The notes below the pieces were generated by a model. That model had not been told where the DNA came from. It ran no database searches and saw only the letters and a program-made list of their open reading frames with translations. A program made the translations under genes and the position numbers. Shown here piece by piece: positions 18,750 through 23,941 of a DNA stretch of 64,000 nucleotides; positions within the stretch are counted from its first letter, which is position 1; the number at the start of each line of letters is the position of its first letter. Source of the stretch: Escherichia phage T5_ev219; the sequence record NC_134263.1. One strand, given 5' to 3'.

Positions 18750-19058
18750 ATGAGCGAACAGGTAAATCAAAACTATGAAGGACACGTTGATGATCAGTCC
18801 ATCATACTTTGGGAGAAGGAGGGGGAACAAGTAAGATTAACAGTATCTGAATTTCGTGGGAATCTATACATGGGTATTCGTTACTGGCTTCTTGATATTA
18901 ATGATGAATGGTTTCCAACGAAATCTGGCTTCTCTTTTCCTTACACCCTAGAAACAACATCACAGCTTTTCTATGCGTTTACACAGATTCTTAGCGAATC
19001 TGAGGTTTTACATGAAGTACAGAAACGAGCTGAAGAACTCAAAGCCAAGAATGCCTAG
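18750..19058 (+). CDS. PC4-like ssDNA-binding / transcriptional coactivator p15-like protein
   Basis: Resembles PC4 C-terminal domain pattern (VRLTVSEFRGNLYMGIRYW...KSGFSF). Confidence 0.45.
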   Translation: MSEQVNQNYEGHVDDQSIILWEKEGEQVRLTVSEFRGNLYMGIRYWLLDINDEWFPTKSGFSFPYTLETTSQLFYAFTQILSESEVLHEVQKRAEELKAKNA

Positions 19059-19072
19059 TTCTTGGCTTTTTC
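19044..19072 (+). terminator. rho-independent terminator
   Basis: gccaagaa tgcctag ttcttggc hairpin then TTTTT. Confidence 0.65.
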
Positions 19073-19085
19073 TTTATAAATGTAT

Positions 19086-19114
19086 TTGCTTTCAACTCAG
19101 TTTTGTTATATAAT
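19086..19114 (+). promoter_or_regulatory. sigma70-type promoter (TTGCTT-17-TATAAT) for the ligase gene
   Basis: Hexamers at 19086-19091 and 19109-19114. Confidence 0.65.
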
Positions 19115-19145
19115 ATTTATATAAATTAATGAGAGATATAAATAA

Positions 19146-20117
19146 ATGACTAATGTAAAAGAATTTATTAAACGCTGTCAAGAAGCATATTATCAGGGTA
19201 TGTCTTTAATCTCTGATGAGGAGTATGATTGCCTGGTAAAACGCTTCCCGTTAGAAGAAGAGATCGGGCCTAGGGGTGATATTCCACATCTGTATCGTAT
19301 GTATTCTTTACAGAAAGTTTACTATAACCGTGGAGATAAATCACCATTCAATCCTTTAGGTCAGGTGGAAACCGATAAGTTAGATGGTTGTGCAATTTCT
19401 CTGCTATATATTAATGGCGAATTTGTTCAAGCATTAACCCGTGGTAATGGTATTCTGGGGAATGATGTCACAAGCAACGTAAGATTGCTGAACATTCCTA
19501 AAAAGATTTCCCAAAAAGTACCTACTCAAATCACTGGTGAAGTTCTAATTACAAAAGAAGTAGAAAATAAACGTAACTTTGCCTCTGGTGCTATTAACCT
19601 CAAAGATAGTGATGCTTTCGTACAACGTATTGGAGAAGGTGGTTTAATCTTCGTTGCATACGGTATCCAGTGTTCTGCTGAATCTGTAGGTATTACAGAA
19701 GCATATTTAAAAGATATGCTTTGGCTGGAGAATGAGAACTTCTTAACAGTTGTTAATGTGCGTTCCTTCTTTAAATGGATTCCGACGGACGGTAAAGTTG
19801 TTCGTATTAATGACAACAACAAATTCTTCCGTGAAGGCTGGACTAATAAATTCCCTCGTGGAGCATTCGCCATTAAAGAGGATGAAGAAGGCGAGATTAC
19901 AACTCTTACTAAAGTTGAATGGCAGGTAGGGGCTTCTGGTAAAGTAACTCCAGTCGGTTATTTTGAACCAGTAATTATTGATGATGCTACAATTGTTAAA
20001 GCGACTCTTAATAACGTTGATTATATTAACTCTCTTGATCTAGAGATCGGTTGCCAGATTCGAGTGATTCGTGCTGGTGGTGTAATCCCGTGCATAGTAG
20101 AGCGAGTATACGATTAA
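19146..20117 (+). CDS. ligA: NAD-dependent DNA ligase, N-terminal subunit (adenylation + OB domains)
   Basis: KxDG adenylation motif (ETDKLDGCAIS); 323 aa. Confidence 0.8.
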   Translation: MTNVKEFIKRCQEAYYQGMSLISDEEYDCLVKRFPLEEEIGPRGDIPHLYRMYSLQKVYYNRGDKSPFNPLGQVETDKLDGCAISLLYINGEFVQALTRGNGILGNDVTSNVRLLNIPKKISQKVPTQITGEVLITKEVENKRNFASGAINLKDSDAFVQRIGEGGLIFVAYGIQCSAESVGITEAYLKDMLWLENENFLTVVNVRSFFKWIPTDGKVVRINDNNKFFREGWTNKFPRGAFAIKEDEEGEITTLTKVEWQVGASGKVTPVGYFEPVIIDDATIVKATLNNVDYINSLDLEIGCQIRVIRAGGVIPCIVERVYD

Positions 20118-20167
20118 TACATAACCCTTTGCTACCCATCTACCATATCGGAATTATAAAGTGGTTA

Positions 20168-20196
20168 TTGACATTTTCGCCGCTTAGGTATATACT
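20168..20196 (+). promoter_or_regulatory. sigma70-type promoter (TTGACA-17-TATACT) inside the ligase inter-ORF spacer
   Basis: Hexamers at 20168-20173 and 20191-20196. Confidence 0.5.
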
Positions 20197-20260
20197 ATTA
20201 TCATTCAGTTGAGGGATAGAAAGTTATGGCGAGGGTAAGCAAAGTTAGTTAAAATTGTAG

Positions 20261-20289
20261 TTGCTAAATGCTTAAATACTTGCTATAAT
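20261..20289 (+). promoter_or_regulatory. sigma70-type promoter (TTGCTA-17-TATAAT) preceding the second ligase ORF
   Basis: Hexamers at 20261-20266 and 20284-20289. Confidence 0.6.
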
Positions 20290-20319
20290 ATTTATATAAA
20301 TTGATAAGGAAGAAATTTG

Positions 20320-21099
20320 ATGAAAATCGAAATTCCAACACAATGTCCCTCTTGTGGTTCTAAGCTAGATCTTGTCAACGGACAATTATTCTGTCGTAAT
20401 AAGTCCAACTGTCCAGCGCAATCAAGTAAGTTAATTGAGAACTTCTGTTCAAAAATGAAGTTAAAGGGTTTTGGCCCAAAAACTATTGAGAAGCTGGAGC
20501 TGACGAAGATTTCAGAACTATTTTACCTAACCGAAGAAGATTTGGTTAGAGCCGTGGGTAGCAAGGTTGCCGCTAAGTTAATTAGCGAATTAAATACTAA
20601 AGTTCGCGGAGACATTGACTTTGGTTCAGTTCTCGGTTCTTTAGGAATCCCTCTAATCGGAGAGGTTGCAGCAAAGAAATTATCCCAAAATTGCACTAGC
20701 TTCCACGATGTGAAGGCTGACGGCAAGGCTGGAGAAAACTATAAAGCCTGGCTAAATTCCCCACAGGGCAAGGATGTTATCGAATTACCGTGGAAATTCA
20801 CAACTGGTATTAAAGGTGCTAAAGCTGAGGTCATCATCACTGATGGTCTAGTAGCCCAACCAAACGGAATAACGGTATGTATTACCGGATCTTTGCAAGA
20901 TTTTGCAAATAGAACGGATGCAACAAACTATTTAGAAGGTCTAGGATATACGGTTAAGAAATCCGTTACCAAAGACGTCAAATACCTAATCTGTGAGGAT
21001 GAATCTAAGCGTTCTTCCTCATCTTATAAGAAAGCCGAAACGAATGGGATAGAAATCCTGTCGATTAAAGAACTATTGGAGAAAAATAATAATGTCTAA
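20320..21099 (+). CDS. ligB: NAD-dependent DNA ligase, C-terminal subunit (Zn-finger, HhH, BRCT-like)
   Basis: Four-Cys zinc finger CPSCG...CRNKSNC; ORF track TTG 20317 adjusted to ATG 20320 with AAGGAAG RBS. Confidence 0.8.
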   Translation: MKIEIPTQCPSCGSKLDLVNGQLFCRNKSNCPAQSSKLIENFCSKMKLKGFGPKTIEKLELTKISELFYLTEEDLVRAVGSKVAAKLISELNTKVRGDIDFGSVLGSLGIPLIGEVAAKKLSQNCTSFHDVKADGKAGENYKAWLNSPQGKDVIELPWKFTTGIKGAKAEVIITDGLVAQPNGITVCITGSLQDFANRTDATNYLEGLGYTVKKSVTKDVKYLICEDESKRSSSSYKKAETNGIEILSIKELLEKNNNV

Positions 21100-21859
21100 A
21101 CTGAACTGGAACGTAGAAGGTGTAACCGAGTCTCTGAAAGCAAAAGCCACTGCTCTGGGTGTTGCTGTAATCTCTCAAGAACAAGTAGCGGCTATCGCTG
21201 CTGAACTGGCTGCTGAAACTGGCAAAGACGTTACCGCTCGCTCTGTTGGCTCTAAGCTGCGCAAAGAAGGTTTCGAAGTACAGAAAGCTAACGAAGTACA
21301 GAAATCCCCGTGGACTCCTGAGCAGGAAGCTGAACTGGTTGATTTCCTGAACGCTCATGCTGGTCAGTATACTTATGCTGAAATCGCTGCTGCTGTAGCT
21401 GGTGGTCAGTTTGGTGCTAAGCAGGTACAGGGTAAGATCCTGAGTCTGGAAATGACAGCATCTGTTAAGCCGACCGAAAAAGCTGCTGCTGTTCGTTCCT
21501 TCACTCCTGATGAAGAAACTGATTTTGTTAATCAGGTTGTTGCTGGTGCTACTATTGAAGCTATCGCTGCTCACTTCGGTCGTAATATCAAGCAGATCCG
21601 TGGTAAAGCTCTGAGTCTGCTTCGCGAAGGTCGTATCGCTGCTATGCCGGTACAGGAAACTTCAAGTGCTAAAACTCGTGAAGATCTGTTAGAAGGTCTG
21701 GATCTGGCTAACATGACTGTTGCTGAGATCGCTGAGAAAACTGGTAAGTCTGAGCGCGGTGTTAAATCTATGCTGTCTCGTCGTGGTCTGGTTGCTAAGG
21801 ACTATGATGGTGCCGCTAAGCGTGCTAAATTGGATGCAAAAGCTGCGGCTGCTGAATAA
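21092..21859 (+). CDS. DNA-binding protein built of four HTH repeats (sigma70 region-4-like); position suggests a D5-type early DNA-binding protein
   Basis: Four approx 40-aa repeats with T.EEIA..G.....IRGKAL.LLR pattern; strongly host-optimised codon usage. Confidence 0.55.
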   Translation: MSKLNWNVEGVTESLKAKATALGVAVISQEQVAAIAAELAAETGKDVTARSVGSKLRKEGFEVQKANEVQKSPWTPEQEAELVDFLNAHAGQYTYAEIAAAVAGGQFGAKQVQGKILSLEMTASVKPTEKAAAVRSFTPDEETDFVNQVVAGATIEAIAAHFGRNIKQIRGKALSLLREGRIAAMPVQETSSAKTREDLLEGLDLANMTVAEIAEKTGKSERGVKSMLSRRGLVAKDYDGAAKRAKLDAKAAAAE

Positions 21860-21941: not shown

Positions 21942-23414
21942 ATGACCTTGTTTAACGTGCAAGCTGTAGTGTTGAAGATGCTTCTAGCTTCAGAACAGAA
22001 GCAAATAGCATTGGAAACATTCTCAAAACTGCATAAAGATCATTTTAATGACGCTTTCTCCTCAATTTACCAAGCCGTCCAGAATTATTATAAAAAATAT
22101 AACACAATGCCGTCCATTGACGCACTGATGCTTGAGGCTAATAGGAACGCCCGCCTTTCTCAAGCTCTAGTCGTTTTAGCTAACACTCAAATTCCAGAAG
22201 TTAGCATGGAACAGGCACTTGAAGTCCTAGAGGCCGAGTATACACAGGATTTATTCCTGAAGCTTCTAGAAACAGACGTGCTTCAAGATTTAACAATGCT
22301 GGATCAGGGAGAAATTCTTAACCGAGTTGCCTCCCTTCACTTAAAATTAGAAGAGAAAGTAACGAATACTGGAAAAGTATTCAACGCAGATAACATGCGT
22401 ATTTTCCAGAGAGAAGAAGATACCAAACTGAACTTAATCGCTCTTGGTATTTGTAATGAGTTCGACGCTCAAATTGGTTTAGCTCGCACAGAAACGTTAC
22501 TGCTTGGTGGTTGGCGTGGTACTGGTAAATCCATTATCTGTTCAAACATACAGGTTCAGCAATATTTGAATGGAGATATTGCTCCATACTTCTCAATTGA
22601 GATGAAAGAACATGAAGTATTTAGACGTAATCTAGCCATGTTAGCTGGTGTATCAGCACTAGCAATGCGTAATAATACTCTAGAAGGTGCAGCTCTGTTG
22701 AGATTAGCCAGAACTAGAGCTAGGATGTTTAACGGTGGTGAAGAGCTTTTCGATAACTTCGTTAAACAGTACACAATGGCTAAGATGAGTGATTTCTACG
22801 ATATGGAAAGTAAGCTAATAGAAGGGTATGAACTACATACTCCTATGATTATTGTTTATGATCCTGAGCTGTCTATTACAACAGTTGACGTAGAATTAAA
22901 TAAATTAGTTGCTAGATATGGTGATAAAGTTACAGTAGCTTTACTTGACTATATTAACCAAACCCGACTTCCAGATTCTAAAACCATTGATATGTATGAC
23001 TGGAAAGAACAGATGGTTGTTAGCTCGTCTTTCAAATCTATCTGCCAGAAACATAACGTGGCTGGTGTAGCTCCTTACCAGATTGATCAAGATGGTAGAA
23101 CACGTATGTCAAAGGGGATTCTTGATTCCGCAGACATGGCTGCTAATCTTAATGCTGCAAAAGCTGATAATGGTCAAGGTGCTATTATGTTTGACTTCGT
23201 TAAGACTCGTTCTTCTGATAGTGTGAAGTTTATGCCTAAAATGAACTGGGAAACCCTACGGATGGATAACACTACCAACCTAGCAATGGAAGATATATCT
23301 CAAATGGAAGCTGAGTTCGTTATCCCTATTGAGAAGGATAAGCCGGCTCAATCTAAACGTGCTAAGAAAGACAAAGCTGAAAATTCAACAGGTGAACAGG
23401 CCAGCGATATATGA
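21942..23414 (+). CDS. DnaB-like replicative helicase
   Basis: Walker A GGWRGTGKS, RecA-like core; ORF track start 21891 lies inside the terminator hairpin, so ATG 21942 with AAGGAG RBS preferred. Confidence 0.7.
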   Translation: MTLFNVQAVVLKMLLASEQKQIALETFSKLHKDHFNDAFSSIYQAVQNYYKKYNTMPSIDALMLEANRNARLSQALVVLANTQIPEVSMEQALEVLEAEYTQDLFLKLLETDVLQDLTMLDQGEILNRVASLHLKLEEKVTNTGKVFNADNMRIFQREEDTKLNLIALGICNEFDAQIGLARTETLLLGGWRGTGKSIICSNIQVQQYLNGDIAPYFSIEMKEHEVFRRNLAMLAGVSALAMRNNTLEGAALLRLARTRARMFNGGEELFDNFVKQYTMAKMSDFYDMESKLIEGYELHTPMIIVYDPELSITTVDVELNKLVARYGDKVTVALLDYINQTRLPDSKTIDMYDWKEQMVVSSSFKSICQKHNVAGVAPYQIDQDGRTRMSKGILDSADMAANLNAAKADNGQGAIMFDFVKTRSSDSVKFMPKMNWETLRMDNTTNLAMEDISQMEAEFVIPIEKDKPAQSKRAKKDKAENSTGEQASDI

Positions 23415-23941
23415 TAACACAGGAACGACTAAAAGAACTGTTTGACTACTCCCCAGAGACTGGGGAGTTTACTAGAAAAGTATCTAGAGGCAATCAGAAA
23501 GCTGGTAGTATTGCGGGTACTCTAGATAGTGGATACATACGGATAAAGGTAGATAGAAAATTATACTTTGCACACCAACTAGCCTTCCTATATATGGAAG
23601 GATATATGCCAGAGGAAGTAGACCATATTAATCGAATTACTTGGGATAATAGATGGATTAATATTAGGCCATCCACCCGGCAAGAAAATAGCAGAAATAA
23701 AACAGCTAGAAGTAAATCTGGATACTTGGGAGTTTTCTGGTTTAAGCGGGATCACAAATGGCATGTAAGAGTAGTAAATTCTATGGGAGAAAAAGTTCAC
23801 GGTGGGCTCTTTAATTACGCAGATCTAAAGCTTGCAGTCACTAAAGCCAATGAACTACGTCTACAATTACATGGAGAAAATGCTGTTCAAGAGATCTTTG
23901 ATCCAACTAAGTATCCTTCACTGGAGGAGTTAAATTCATGA
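23411..23941 (+). CDS. HNH homing endonuclease (paralog of 810-1358)
   Basis: Colinear similarity with 810-1358 protein (FT.KVSRG...AH.LAFLYM...DH.NRI..DNRWINIR); sits between helicase and primase. Confidence 0.7.
   Translation: MITQERLKELFDYSPETGEFTRKVSRGNQKAGSIAGTLDSGYIRIKVDRKLYFAHQLAFLYMEGYMPEEVDHINRITWDNRWINIRPSTRQENSRNKTARSKSGYLGVFWFKRDHKWHVRVVNSMGEKVHGGLFNYADLKLAVTKANELRLQLHGENAVQEIFDPTKYPSLEELNS

Follow-up and report, generated by a model that had tools for sequence, protein, structure and literature searches.

Bacterial NAD+-dependent DNA ligase (LigA) is a single polypeptide of ~670 amino acids, whose domains run Ia, NTase, OB, Zn finger, HhH, and BRCT, as in the structures from Escherichia coli (2OWO) and Thermus filiformis (1DGS/1V9P). 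In phage T5, the enzyme is annotated as two genes, ligA and ligB (T5.116/T5.117; dnlj1/dnlj2). The split and the promoters inside it have stood in the T5 annotation since 2004-2005, and a 2006 paper speaks of the "split NAD+-dependent DNA ligase" of T5, citing Wang et al. 2005 (PMC1684257). Both are therefore real but not new. Searching the literature for these P-K28 promoters and for the biochemistry of the T5 pair, we found only that remark and annotation-level mentions of the ligase subunits (PMC3632103); a CRISPRi-ART supplement, considered below, was found later. The searchable literature yielded no biochemical assay of a T5-type pair, and T5 ligA/ligB are absent from HIDEN-SEQ and the PhiKMV ligase preprint.

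Two relatives frame the comparison. PDB entries 9HU3 and 9I5I each hold a "DNA ligase (NAD+)" and a "DNA ligase subunit B," together four chains of each subunit sequence; a literature search found no paper behind 9HU3. Chain A, reconstructed as far as possible (329 aa), is 100% identical to the protein of Providencia phage vB_PreS_PR1. Yersinia phage vB_Yru_GN1 also carries a homologous NAD+ ligase in its replication module, but there it is fused into a single 1914-bp ORF; this protein is 29% identical to the LigA described here and lies outside the split clade.

We analyzed a 64,000-nucleotide stretch of Escherichia phage T5_ev219 (NC_134263.1), referred to below as the window. T5 and BF23 match the region of interest at 98% identity, and the annotation there gives both subunits (A and B) of an NAD-dependent DNA ligase together with promoters P-K28b and P-K28a. 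The two subunits closely resemble T5-type family members: they are 98-99% identical to those of T5 (LigA, 98.8%; LigB, 98.5%) and match chains A and B of 9HU3 with E values of 6e-103 and 4e-80. Genes, gene order, break point, 202-bp spacer, and promoters are all as in T5, and positions 20150-20319 of the spacer match it at 170/170 positions. The differences from T5 are strain-level substitutions only. The window is nevertheless not T5 itself, and the segments adjoining the region find better matches among other Tequintavirus and Epseptimavirus isolates than in T5. The genes lie in an early replication module with the order D2-D3-...-ligA-ligB-D5-D6, ligA directly 5' of ligB on the same strand. 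We conclude that the locus is very probably the ligA-ligB pair of a T5-like phage (Demerecviridae), coding for a two-subunit NAD+-dependent DNA ligase split at the linker between OB fold and zinc finger. Its features, in window coordinates, are as follows.

19041-19069, + strand: terminator-like hairpin followed by a T-run, found by scan; 3' of the preceding gene and 5' of the ligA promoter
19086-19114, + strand: ligA promoter, TTGCTT-17-TATAAT, read from the sequence; equivalent to the T5 "putative early promoter T5P35"; predicted transcript start near 19121
19109-19130, + strand: 22-bp -10/leader repeat TATAATATTTATATAAATTAAT, a copy of "repeat b" ("repeat b copy 4" in AY587007)
19146-20117, + strand: ligA ORF, 323 aa; putative domain Ia, adenylation domain, OB fold
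20118-20319, + strand: intergenic spacer, 202 bp from the ligA stop to the ligB ATG
20168-20196, + strand: promoter P-K28b, TTGACA-17-TATACT; scan score 11/12, predicted transcript start near 20203
20261-20289, + strand: promoter P-K28a, TTGCTA-17-TGcTATAAT, extended -10; scan score 10/12, predicted transcript start near 20296
20284-20305, + strand: second copy of the 22-bp -10/leader repeat, TATAATATTTATATAAATTGAT ("repeat b"), by sequence match and AY587007
20306-20312, + strand: Shine-Dalgarno site AAGGAAG of ligB, 7 nt before the ATG; kept in alignments across relatives
20320-21099, + strand: ligB ORF, 259 aa; Cys4 zinc finger (C9/C12/C25/C31), HhH, BRCT
21092-21859, + strand: D5 gene (DNA-binding protein/transcription factor), its start overlapping the ligB stop (ATGTCTAA)

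The initial annotation had placed an adenylation/OB half and a Zn-finger/HhH/BRCT half in separate ORFs, and domain searches and alignments agree. LigA matches Pfam DNA_ligase_aden (E, 9e-24) and, over residues 252-321, DNA_ligase_OB (E, 3e-22), this part aligning to E. coli residues 284-390. K78 (K78-L-D-G), the lysine of the motif I KxDG, aligns with the E. coli active-site residue K115. Among 72 distinct LigA sequences, K78, D80, G81, R99, E132, D215, G216, R220, and K244 are invariant. The KxDG lysine, the motif III Glu, the motif V Lys, and the four zinc cysteines of single-chain LigA all have aligned counterparts in the phage pair. Motif IV differs: its lysine, K290 in E. coli LigA, is replaced throughout the phage clade by an invariant arginine, R220. 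As for domain Ia, the N-terminal domain that confers NAD+ specificity on the family, residues 21-29 (ISDEEYDCL) are similar to ISDAEYDRL in Thermus LigA, although this stretch alone is not significant by HMMER, and Y15, G18, and D28 are invariant in the clade. In LigB, Pfam recognizes the BRCT domain (E, 1.6e-8) and, more weakly, HhH; the zinc cysteines C9, C12, C25, and C31 are invariant in 70 distinct sequences.

Aligning the pair to bacterial LigA, as had been proposed, mapped the break between E. coli residues 390 and 402, in the linker between OB fold and zinc finger. Residue 320 of LigA corresponds to residue 390 of the E. coli enzyme, and residue 3 of LigB to its residue 402; about six linker residues (394-399) have no counterpart in the phage pair. 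Beyond the break, LigB aligns to E. coli residues 402-529 and 596-666 and to T. filiformis residues 400-653. The N-terminal half is ~70 aa shorter than in the bacterial enzyme. The pair has the NTase domain with its motifs, the OB fold, and the Cys4/HhH/BRCT region of the LigA family, on two polypeptides instead of one.

Could the locus simply be a decayed gene, a single ligA broken by insertion or frameshift whose pieces no longer work? The two ORFs are in different reading frames with noncoding DNA between them, as such decay would leave them. Knock-down data also lend this idea something: in the supplementary files of a CRISPRi-ART screen of T5 (PMC11879866, files 1 and 16), ligA is called "Semi-Fit" and ligB "Not Fit." From these calls, neither half is clearly required under laboratory conditions, and the two behave differently. 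The ligB call could also arise because host LigA masks the loss or because the ligB knock-down was inefficient. Against decay, dN/dS is far below 1 in both genes (0.04-0.14 for ligA and 0.04-0.19 for ligB; 0.04-0.14 for both at unsaturated distances), and both halves are under strong purifying selection. The catalytic and zinc-binding residues are invariant in ~70 distinct sequences per half. The break is found at the identical OB/zinc-finger linker in 80/80 related loci from IMG/VR, down to ~40% identity, and ligB still has a start codon, a Shine-Dalgarno site, and a promoter of its own. Moreover, both chains of the PR1 homologue were expressed and solved together. Decay is thus extremely improbable and is effectively refuted by the selection data. 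The claim of a genuine two-subunit ligase, as opposed to a simple interruption, is supported by the selection, the invariant residues, the 80/80 split, and the two-chain PDB entries.

The same 80 loci bear on whether a single polypeptide is made after all. Self-splicing introns sometimes interrupt phage genes, and gene 60 of T4 is translated by bypass. The halves here might be rejoined by splicing (of an intron or an intein), by a ribosomal frameshift, or by translational bypass over the spacer. We found no direct support for any of these at ligA-ligB, and splicing or bypass, which the initial annotation had named as grounds for abandoning its proposal, left no signal. An Rfam search of positions 18900-21300 that included group I and group II introns gave no match at an E value of ≤1. 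In all 80 loci, LigA is a separate ORF directly 5' of LigB, with order and strand preserved, but the spacers range from 70 to 1359 bp, some contain one to three small ORFs, and ligB occurs in all three frames relative to ligA. Both protein ends are fixed at one linker: LigA of the clade ends in ...GGVIPxIVxRV.. and LigB starts with MKIxIPxxCPxC (overall M-x-I-x-I-P-x-x-C-P), patterns that the window's proteins fit, and ligB has its own Shine-Dalgarno site and promoter. The PDB entry likewise has two separate chains. The fixed break point, the variable spacer and frame, and the lack of an Rfam match argue against splicing, frameshifting, and bypass, and we give a rejoined polypeptide next to no chance at all.

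The split extends well beyond close kin of T5. The relatives annotated in phages of Klebsiella, Proteus, Providencia, and Vibrio have it too, and the best 120 LigB homologues listed are nearly all separate proteins, 245-263 aa long; two that are shorter look truncated. PR1 shares the two-chain architecture and the break point, with tandem promoters in a 192-bp spacer, although its subunits are only 53-54% identical to those of the window. We conclude that the split was present in the ancestor of a clade extending down to ~40% identity and is universal there, and that the ligA-ligB gap is an insertion hotspot for small genes. Phages SP15 and chee24 had been expected to carry an extra 190-275 bp in the spacer, but in both this DNA is a small ORF 5' of ligA.

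We turned to the spacer itself. Its length had been given as 199 bp, which holds if one counts to an in-frame TTG at 20317, just 5' of the ATG; to the ATG itself, the distance is 202 bp. A ribosome-binding site and two sigma70-type promoters had also been reported there. The former is the Shine-Dalgarno site listed above, and a promoter scan returned exactly the latter two. The T5 features "promoter P-K 28b" and "promoter P-K 28a" map to window positions 20148-20222 and 20241-20315. The scan by itself is no evidence of function, because its 4 promoter-like sites in 2.8 kb compare with 7.1 ± 2.6 in shuffled sequences, i.e., no enrichment; it also scored the ligA promoter below its threshold, although T5 promoter features for ligA map to 19066-19140. 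The case for function comes instead from conservation and from the T5 annotation of the same sequences. Hexamers and spacing of both promoters are kept across genera, those of P-K28b across at least 5. A promoter lies 23-45 nt 5' of ligB in 50/52 distinct upstream regions, compared with 2% of shuffles, even where the spacer is only ~70 bp. Positions 20150-20319 form an ultraconserved promoter/leader block, 100% identical in S113 and RN29 while dS in the flanks is 0.3-0.76. It is the most conserved stretch of the 4-kb neighborhood, above the coding DNA around it. The 22-bp repeat, one copy of which accompanies the ligA promoter and the other P-K28a, has just these two matches in the 64-kb window, where 0 are expected by chance. 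By their identity with the T5 features and their sigma70 architecture, P-K28b and P-K28a would both class as T5 early promoters.

Upstream of ligA, AY587007 has a putative rho-independent terminator at the place equivalent to 19041-19069. Within the spacer, the scan found no terminator-like site, and shuffled sequences fold as well as the RNA of 20100-20210 (z = 0.26); in contrast, a terminator is annotated right behind ligA in the PR1 record. Read-through from the ligA promoter into ligB would hence be expected in the window. The D5 start overlaps the ligB stop, which puts D5 in the same transcription unit as ligB, and this junction is 99-100% conserved in comparisons with S113 and RN29. It is reasonable to suppose, as had been proposed, that ligB may be expressed partly independently of ligA.

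The window's 133-nt leader RNA folds unusually well (z = -4.73). Between the predicted P-K28b start and the start of ligB it forms a long hairpin in which leader sequence pairs with the -10 region of P-K28a (20223-20233 against 20279-20289), and an SD-like GAGGGA and a mini-ORF of 8 codons (start at 20226) lie in the same RNA. We considered a conserved leader structure but do not claim one. Leaders from Klebsiella, Pectobacterium, Providencia, and Proteus phages adopt other structures (z from -0.4 to -3.2), and a local hairpin that covers the second promoter's -35 depends on lineage: it is strong in some (z = -4.6, -4.2, and -2.9) but missing from the window (z = +0.55) and from Vibrio phage Ceto. 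There is a slim chance, perhaps, that the promoter/leader block acts as a regulatory RNA or leader setting the ratio of LigB and D5 to LigA, or else that LigB has a role independent of ligation; the latter would fit the differing fitness calls for ligA and ligB in T5.

Such a role leads to a further reading, in which both proteins are functional but do not form an obligate pair. The spacer promoters would then serve mainly D5 and the downstream replication genes, and LigB, made from more transcripts, would have an extra or separate task, such as DNA binding or recruitment through BRCT/HhH. The conserved overlap of ligB with D5, the nearly universal promoter before ligB, the exceptional conservation of the promoter block, and the unequal fitness calls (PMC11879866) are all compatible with this. 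On the other hand, ligA and ligB are always adjacent, in one order and on one strand, and are under similar constraint. LigB is colinear with the entire C-terminal half of single-chain LigA, and no domain match points to a second function. In addition, Haloferax volcanii LigN-deltaC, which comprises domain Ia plus the adenylation and OB domains and so ends at the LigA/LigB boundary, forms the enzyme-adenylate but cannot ligate (PMC1684257). This mimic of LigA alone was engineered from an archaeal enzyme, and we found no result on its complementation in trans; its failure to ligate supports a need for the LigB half. We consider the nonobligate arrangement quite unlikely.

The two-subunit ligase, our preferred reading, suggests the following model, which draws on homologues and annotation. 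LigA would react with NAD+ through its domain Ia, adenylation domain, and OB fold to form enzyme-AMP on Lys78. LigB, with its zinc finger, HhH, and BRCT, would provide the DNA-clamping, nick-binding half, and enzymes of the NAD+ ligase family that lack this half cannot seal nicks. The two would associate noncovalently in a heterodimer that replaces the single-chain bacterial LigA, an association to which the presence of both chains in 9HU3 and 9I5I points, and would seal Okazaki fragments and nicks in phage DNA. ligA would be transcribed from its own early promoter, the spacer shows no terminator, and P-K28b and P-K28a in tandem would add transcripts over ligB, the overlapping D5, and the genes further 3'.

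As a discovery the locus carries little weight, since the T5 annotation, a name in the literature, and a deposited two-chain homologue structure already exist. What the comparisons contribute is modest: the clade inherited the split from its ancestor and has it throughout, a promoter travels with ligB, and the gap is an insertion site for small genes. A LigA that is naturally and stably split is useful for studying how the catalytic half and the clamp-forming C-terminal half work together, a lead that is already in the hands of others.

By its sequence, the window is that of a T5-like phage: positions 19000-21200 align end to end with Escherichia phages BF23 and T5 at 98% identity, and matches to this region occur in 454 phage records. 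Its NAD-dependent DNA ligase is divided between two ORFs in different reading frames:

19146-20117, plus strand: ligA ORF, 323 aa
20320-21099, plus strand: ligB ORF, 259 aa

The first ORF matches the Pfam NAD-ligase adenylation (E 9e-24) and OB (E 3e-22) domains; the second matches BRCT (E 1.6e-8) and, more weakly, HhH. These coordinates and domains bear out the separate ligase halves described in the initial annotation. The ligA stop lies 202 bp before the ligB ATG, or 199 bp if the distance is counted to an in-frame TTG at 20317.

The split ligase and its internal promoters are real, yet already annotated and published. A passage of the 2006 paper that names the split T5 enzyme reports that LigN, the Haloferax volcanii ligase, self-adenylates but cannot ligate when truncated at the same boundary (Ia, adenylation and OB; PMC1684257). 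In T5 record AY543070 the same loci are annotated as 'promoter P-K 28b', 'promoter P-K 28a' and ligB (T5.117) 'subunit B', followed by D5. In record AY587007 the genes go by the names dnlj1 and dnlj2, early promoters are marked as T5P35, T5P36 and T5P37, and 'repeat b' copies 4 and 5 precede the two ligase genes. PDB entries 9HU3 and 9I5I each contain a 'DNA ligase (NAD+)' chain of 339 aa and a 'DNA ligase subunit B' chain of 248 aa, matching the window proteins at E 6e-103 and 4e-80, respectively. Chain A, reconstructed over 329 aa from the printed alignment, is 100% identical to Providencia phage vB_PreS_PR1 (PR1). A literature search found no paper describing these entries.

Where is the enzyme cut? 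Alignment to E. coli LigA pairs its active-site K115 with LigA K78 (KLDG), residue 390 with LigA residue 320, residue 402 with LigB residue 3, and the BRCT domain (596-666) with LigB residues 179-253. The break therefore maps within the short OB-to-Zn-finger linker, where only about six E. coli residues lack a counterpart, and the whole C-terminal half of the single-chain enzyme is co-linear with LigB. We also observed that LigA R220 (19803-19805) is an arginine where E. coli motif IV has lysine K290; it is invariant across all 72 distinct LigA sequences from the split clade, the T5-type phages with a two-gene ligase.

The two genes have the same ends (LigA closing with GGVIPxIVERVYD and a stop, LigB opening with MKIxIPTxCPxCG) in every annotated relative examined: T5, BF23, SP15, chee24, three Epseptimavirus phages, Klebsiella Sugarlandvirus, Proteus Novosibvirus, Providencia Priunavirus and two Vibrio phages. 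A LigB profile run against IMG/VR identified 80 loci, with identity down to about 38-45%; in 80/80, LigA has an ORF of its own immediately upstream of LigB and in the same orientation, with spacers of 70-1359 bp and all three relative frames. In a collection of 5.8 billion proteins, the 120 best LigB homologues listed are stand-alone proteins, all but two of them 245-263 aa long; those two, of 190 and 214 aa, appear truncated. The nearest phage ligases outside the clade are at most 33% identical, and the sole one checked, from Yersinia phage GN1, is a single-ORF gene (29% identity).

Could the division instead reflect decay, a sequencing artefact, or a gene rejoined by splicing or bypass across the spacer? 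Relative to the window, dN/dS is 0.04-0.14 for ligA and 0.04-0.19 for ligB. Among 72 distinct LigA and 70 distinct LigB sequences, LigA K78, D80, G81, R99, E132, D215, G216, R220 and K244 and LigB C9, C12, C25 and C31 are invariant. A search of the region for RNA families, introns included, returned 0 matches. Taken together, the universal split, the selection, the invariant residues and the empty RNA search exclude all four explanations for practical purposes. The first three of these support the earlier claim of a genuine two-subunit ligase rather than a simple interruption.

Supplementary files 1 and 16 of a genome-wide CRISPRi-ART study of T5 score ligA as 'Semi-Fit' (mean -1.65, P 0.21) and ligB as 'Not Fit' (mean -3.97, P 0.66), and its authors name ligB as one of the few replication genes without a fit call (PMC11879866). 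These calls are compatible with a two-subunit enzyme, since host LigA may take over or the knock-down may be incomplete. They do not establish that both halves are needed in vivo, and they leave a small opening for a separate LigB role.

In relatives, the gap that separates ligA from ligB is a hotspot for insertions, with one to three small uncharacterized ORFs: Salmonella phage smaug has one of 64 aa, a Proteus phage one of 55 aa, and Vibrio phages two or three. One Epseptimavirus-like contig has a 794-bp gap. SP15, chee24, RN29 and smaug carry a small extra ORF immediately 5' of ligA, which the window lacks. The window also contains a 176-aa ORF annotated in relatives as an HNH homing endonuclease ('hegJ', P-TflX-like). 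Of 424 phage records that match an 801-bp query around it, only 42 cover at least 80% of the query, which makes the distribution of the ORF in this form sporadic.

Insertions in relatives' ligase loci, and the window ORF
L013: 2468-2662
L005: 2992-3159
L006: 3011-3775
L007: 2969-3948
L039: 794-bp gap
Window, 23411-23941: 176-aa ORF overlapping the end of the D6 helicase gene (ATGA)

The ligase genes are accompanied by the following signals:

19086-19114, plus strand: ligA promoter, TTGCTT-17-TATAAT
19109-19130 and 20284-20305: 22-bp sequence TATAATATTTATATAAATT(A/G)AT, -10 plus initial transcribed region
20168-20196, plus strand: P-K28b, TTGACA-17-TATACT
20211-20216, plus strand: SD-like GAGGGA in the P-K28b leader
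20226-20252, plus strand: 8-codon mini-ORF ATG...TAA (MARVSKVS) in the P-K28b leader
20261-20289, plus strand: P-K28a, TTGCTA-17-TATAAT with TG extension
20306-20312, plus strand: ligB Shine-Dalgarno AAGGAAG

Our promoter scan returned coordinates identical to those first proposed for two sigma70-type spacer promoters, and the predicted ligB ribosome-binding site is well placed. The names P-K28a and P-K28b reportedly come from the Bujard laboratory's functional mapping of T5 promoters in the 1980s.

Judged by its conservation, the spacer is not neutral DNA. The non-coding promoter/leader block at 20150-20319 is identical at 170/170 positions in T5, BF23, SP15, S113 and RN29, and the synonymous divergence of S113 and RN29 (Epseptimavirus) from the window is 0.62-0.76 in ligA and 0.28-0.37 in ligB. 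Scored in 100-bp windows, no other part of the surrounding 4 kb is as conserved as the spacer (70-97% elsewhere, 99-100% in the spacer). Two promoters would not obviously require so much constraint. The transcript inferred to begin at P-K28b, taken as far as the ligB start (20203-20335), is predicted to fold into a single long hairpin (z = -4.73, 0/200 shuffles; -30.7 kcal/mol), pairing 20223-20233 with the P-K28a -10 region (20279-20289) and leaving the ligB SD free. The fold was not reproduced in Klebsiella, Pectobacterium, Providencia or Proteus leaders, so we claim no conserved structure. The mini-ORF may encode a leader peptide or be what is left of a lost small gene; short ORFs lie at a similar place in PR1 and a Proteus phage and are absent in other lineages.

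The ligA promoter shares its -10 and leader with P-K28a as the 22-bp sequence, whose only two occurrences in the 64-kb window, one before each gene, are the AY587007 'repeat b' copies 4 and 5. Hence, ligA and ligB have nearly the same promoter-leader module. We found no terminator-like site in the window's spacer, so read-through from ligA into ligB would be expected; the PR1 record, in contrast, has an annotated terminator following ligA. The stop codon of ligB and the start of D5 overlap (ATGTCTAA, 21092-21099), and over the 100 bp around this junction S113 and RN29 share 99-100% identity with the window. The overlap and conserved junction suggest LigB-D5 translational coupling. Because of the overlap, the spacer promoters would also drive D5 and probably genes beyond.

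How old is this arrangement? Klebsiella, Pectobacterium, Providencia and Proteus lineages keep the -35 and -10 hexamers and 17-bp spacing of both promoters, as well as the TGn extension of the second, while the sequence between hexamers diverges. Across all lineages, 50 of 52 distinct regions upstream of ligB contain a promoter site (at least 9/12 matches, ending 23-45 nt before the start codon), typically a perfect TATAAT with a 17-bp spacer; only 2% of shuffled sequences do. The other two have apparent promoter-like sequences beyond our search rules. A promoter immediately before ligB is thus as old as the split, and one of the P-K28b type, further upstream, occurs only in lineages with longer spacers. 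'Partly independent expression', as the initial annotation put it, appears a fair description.
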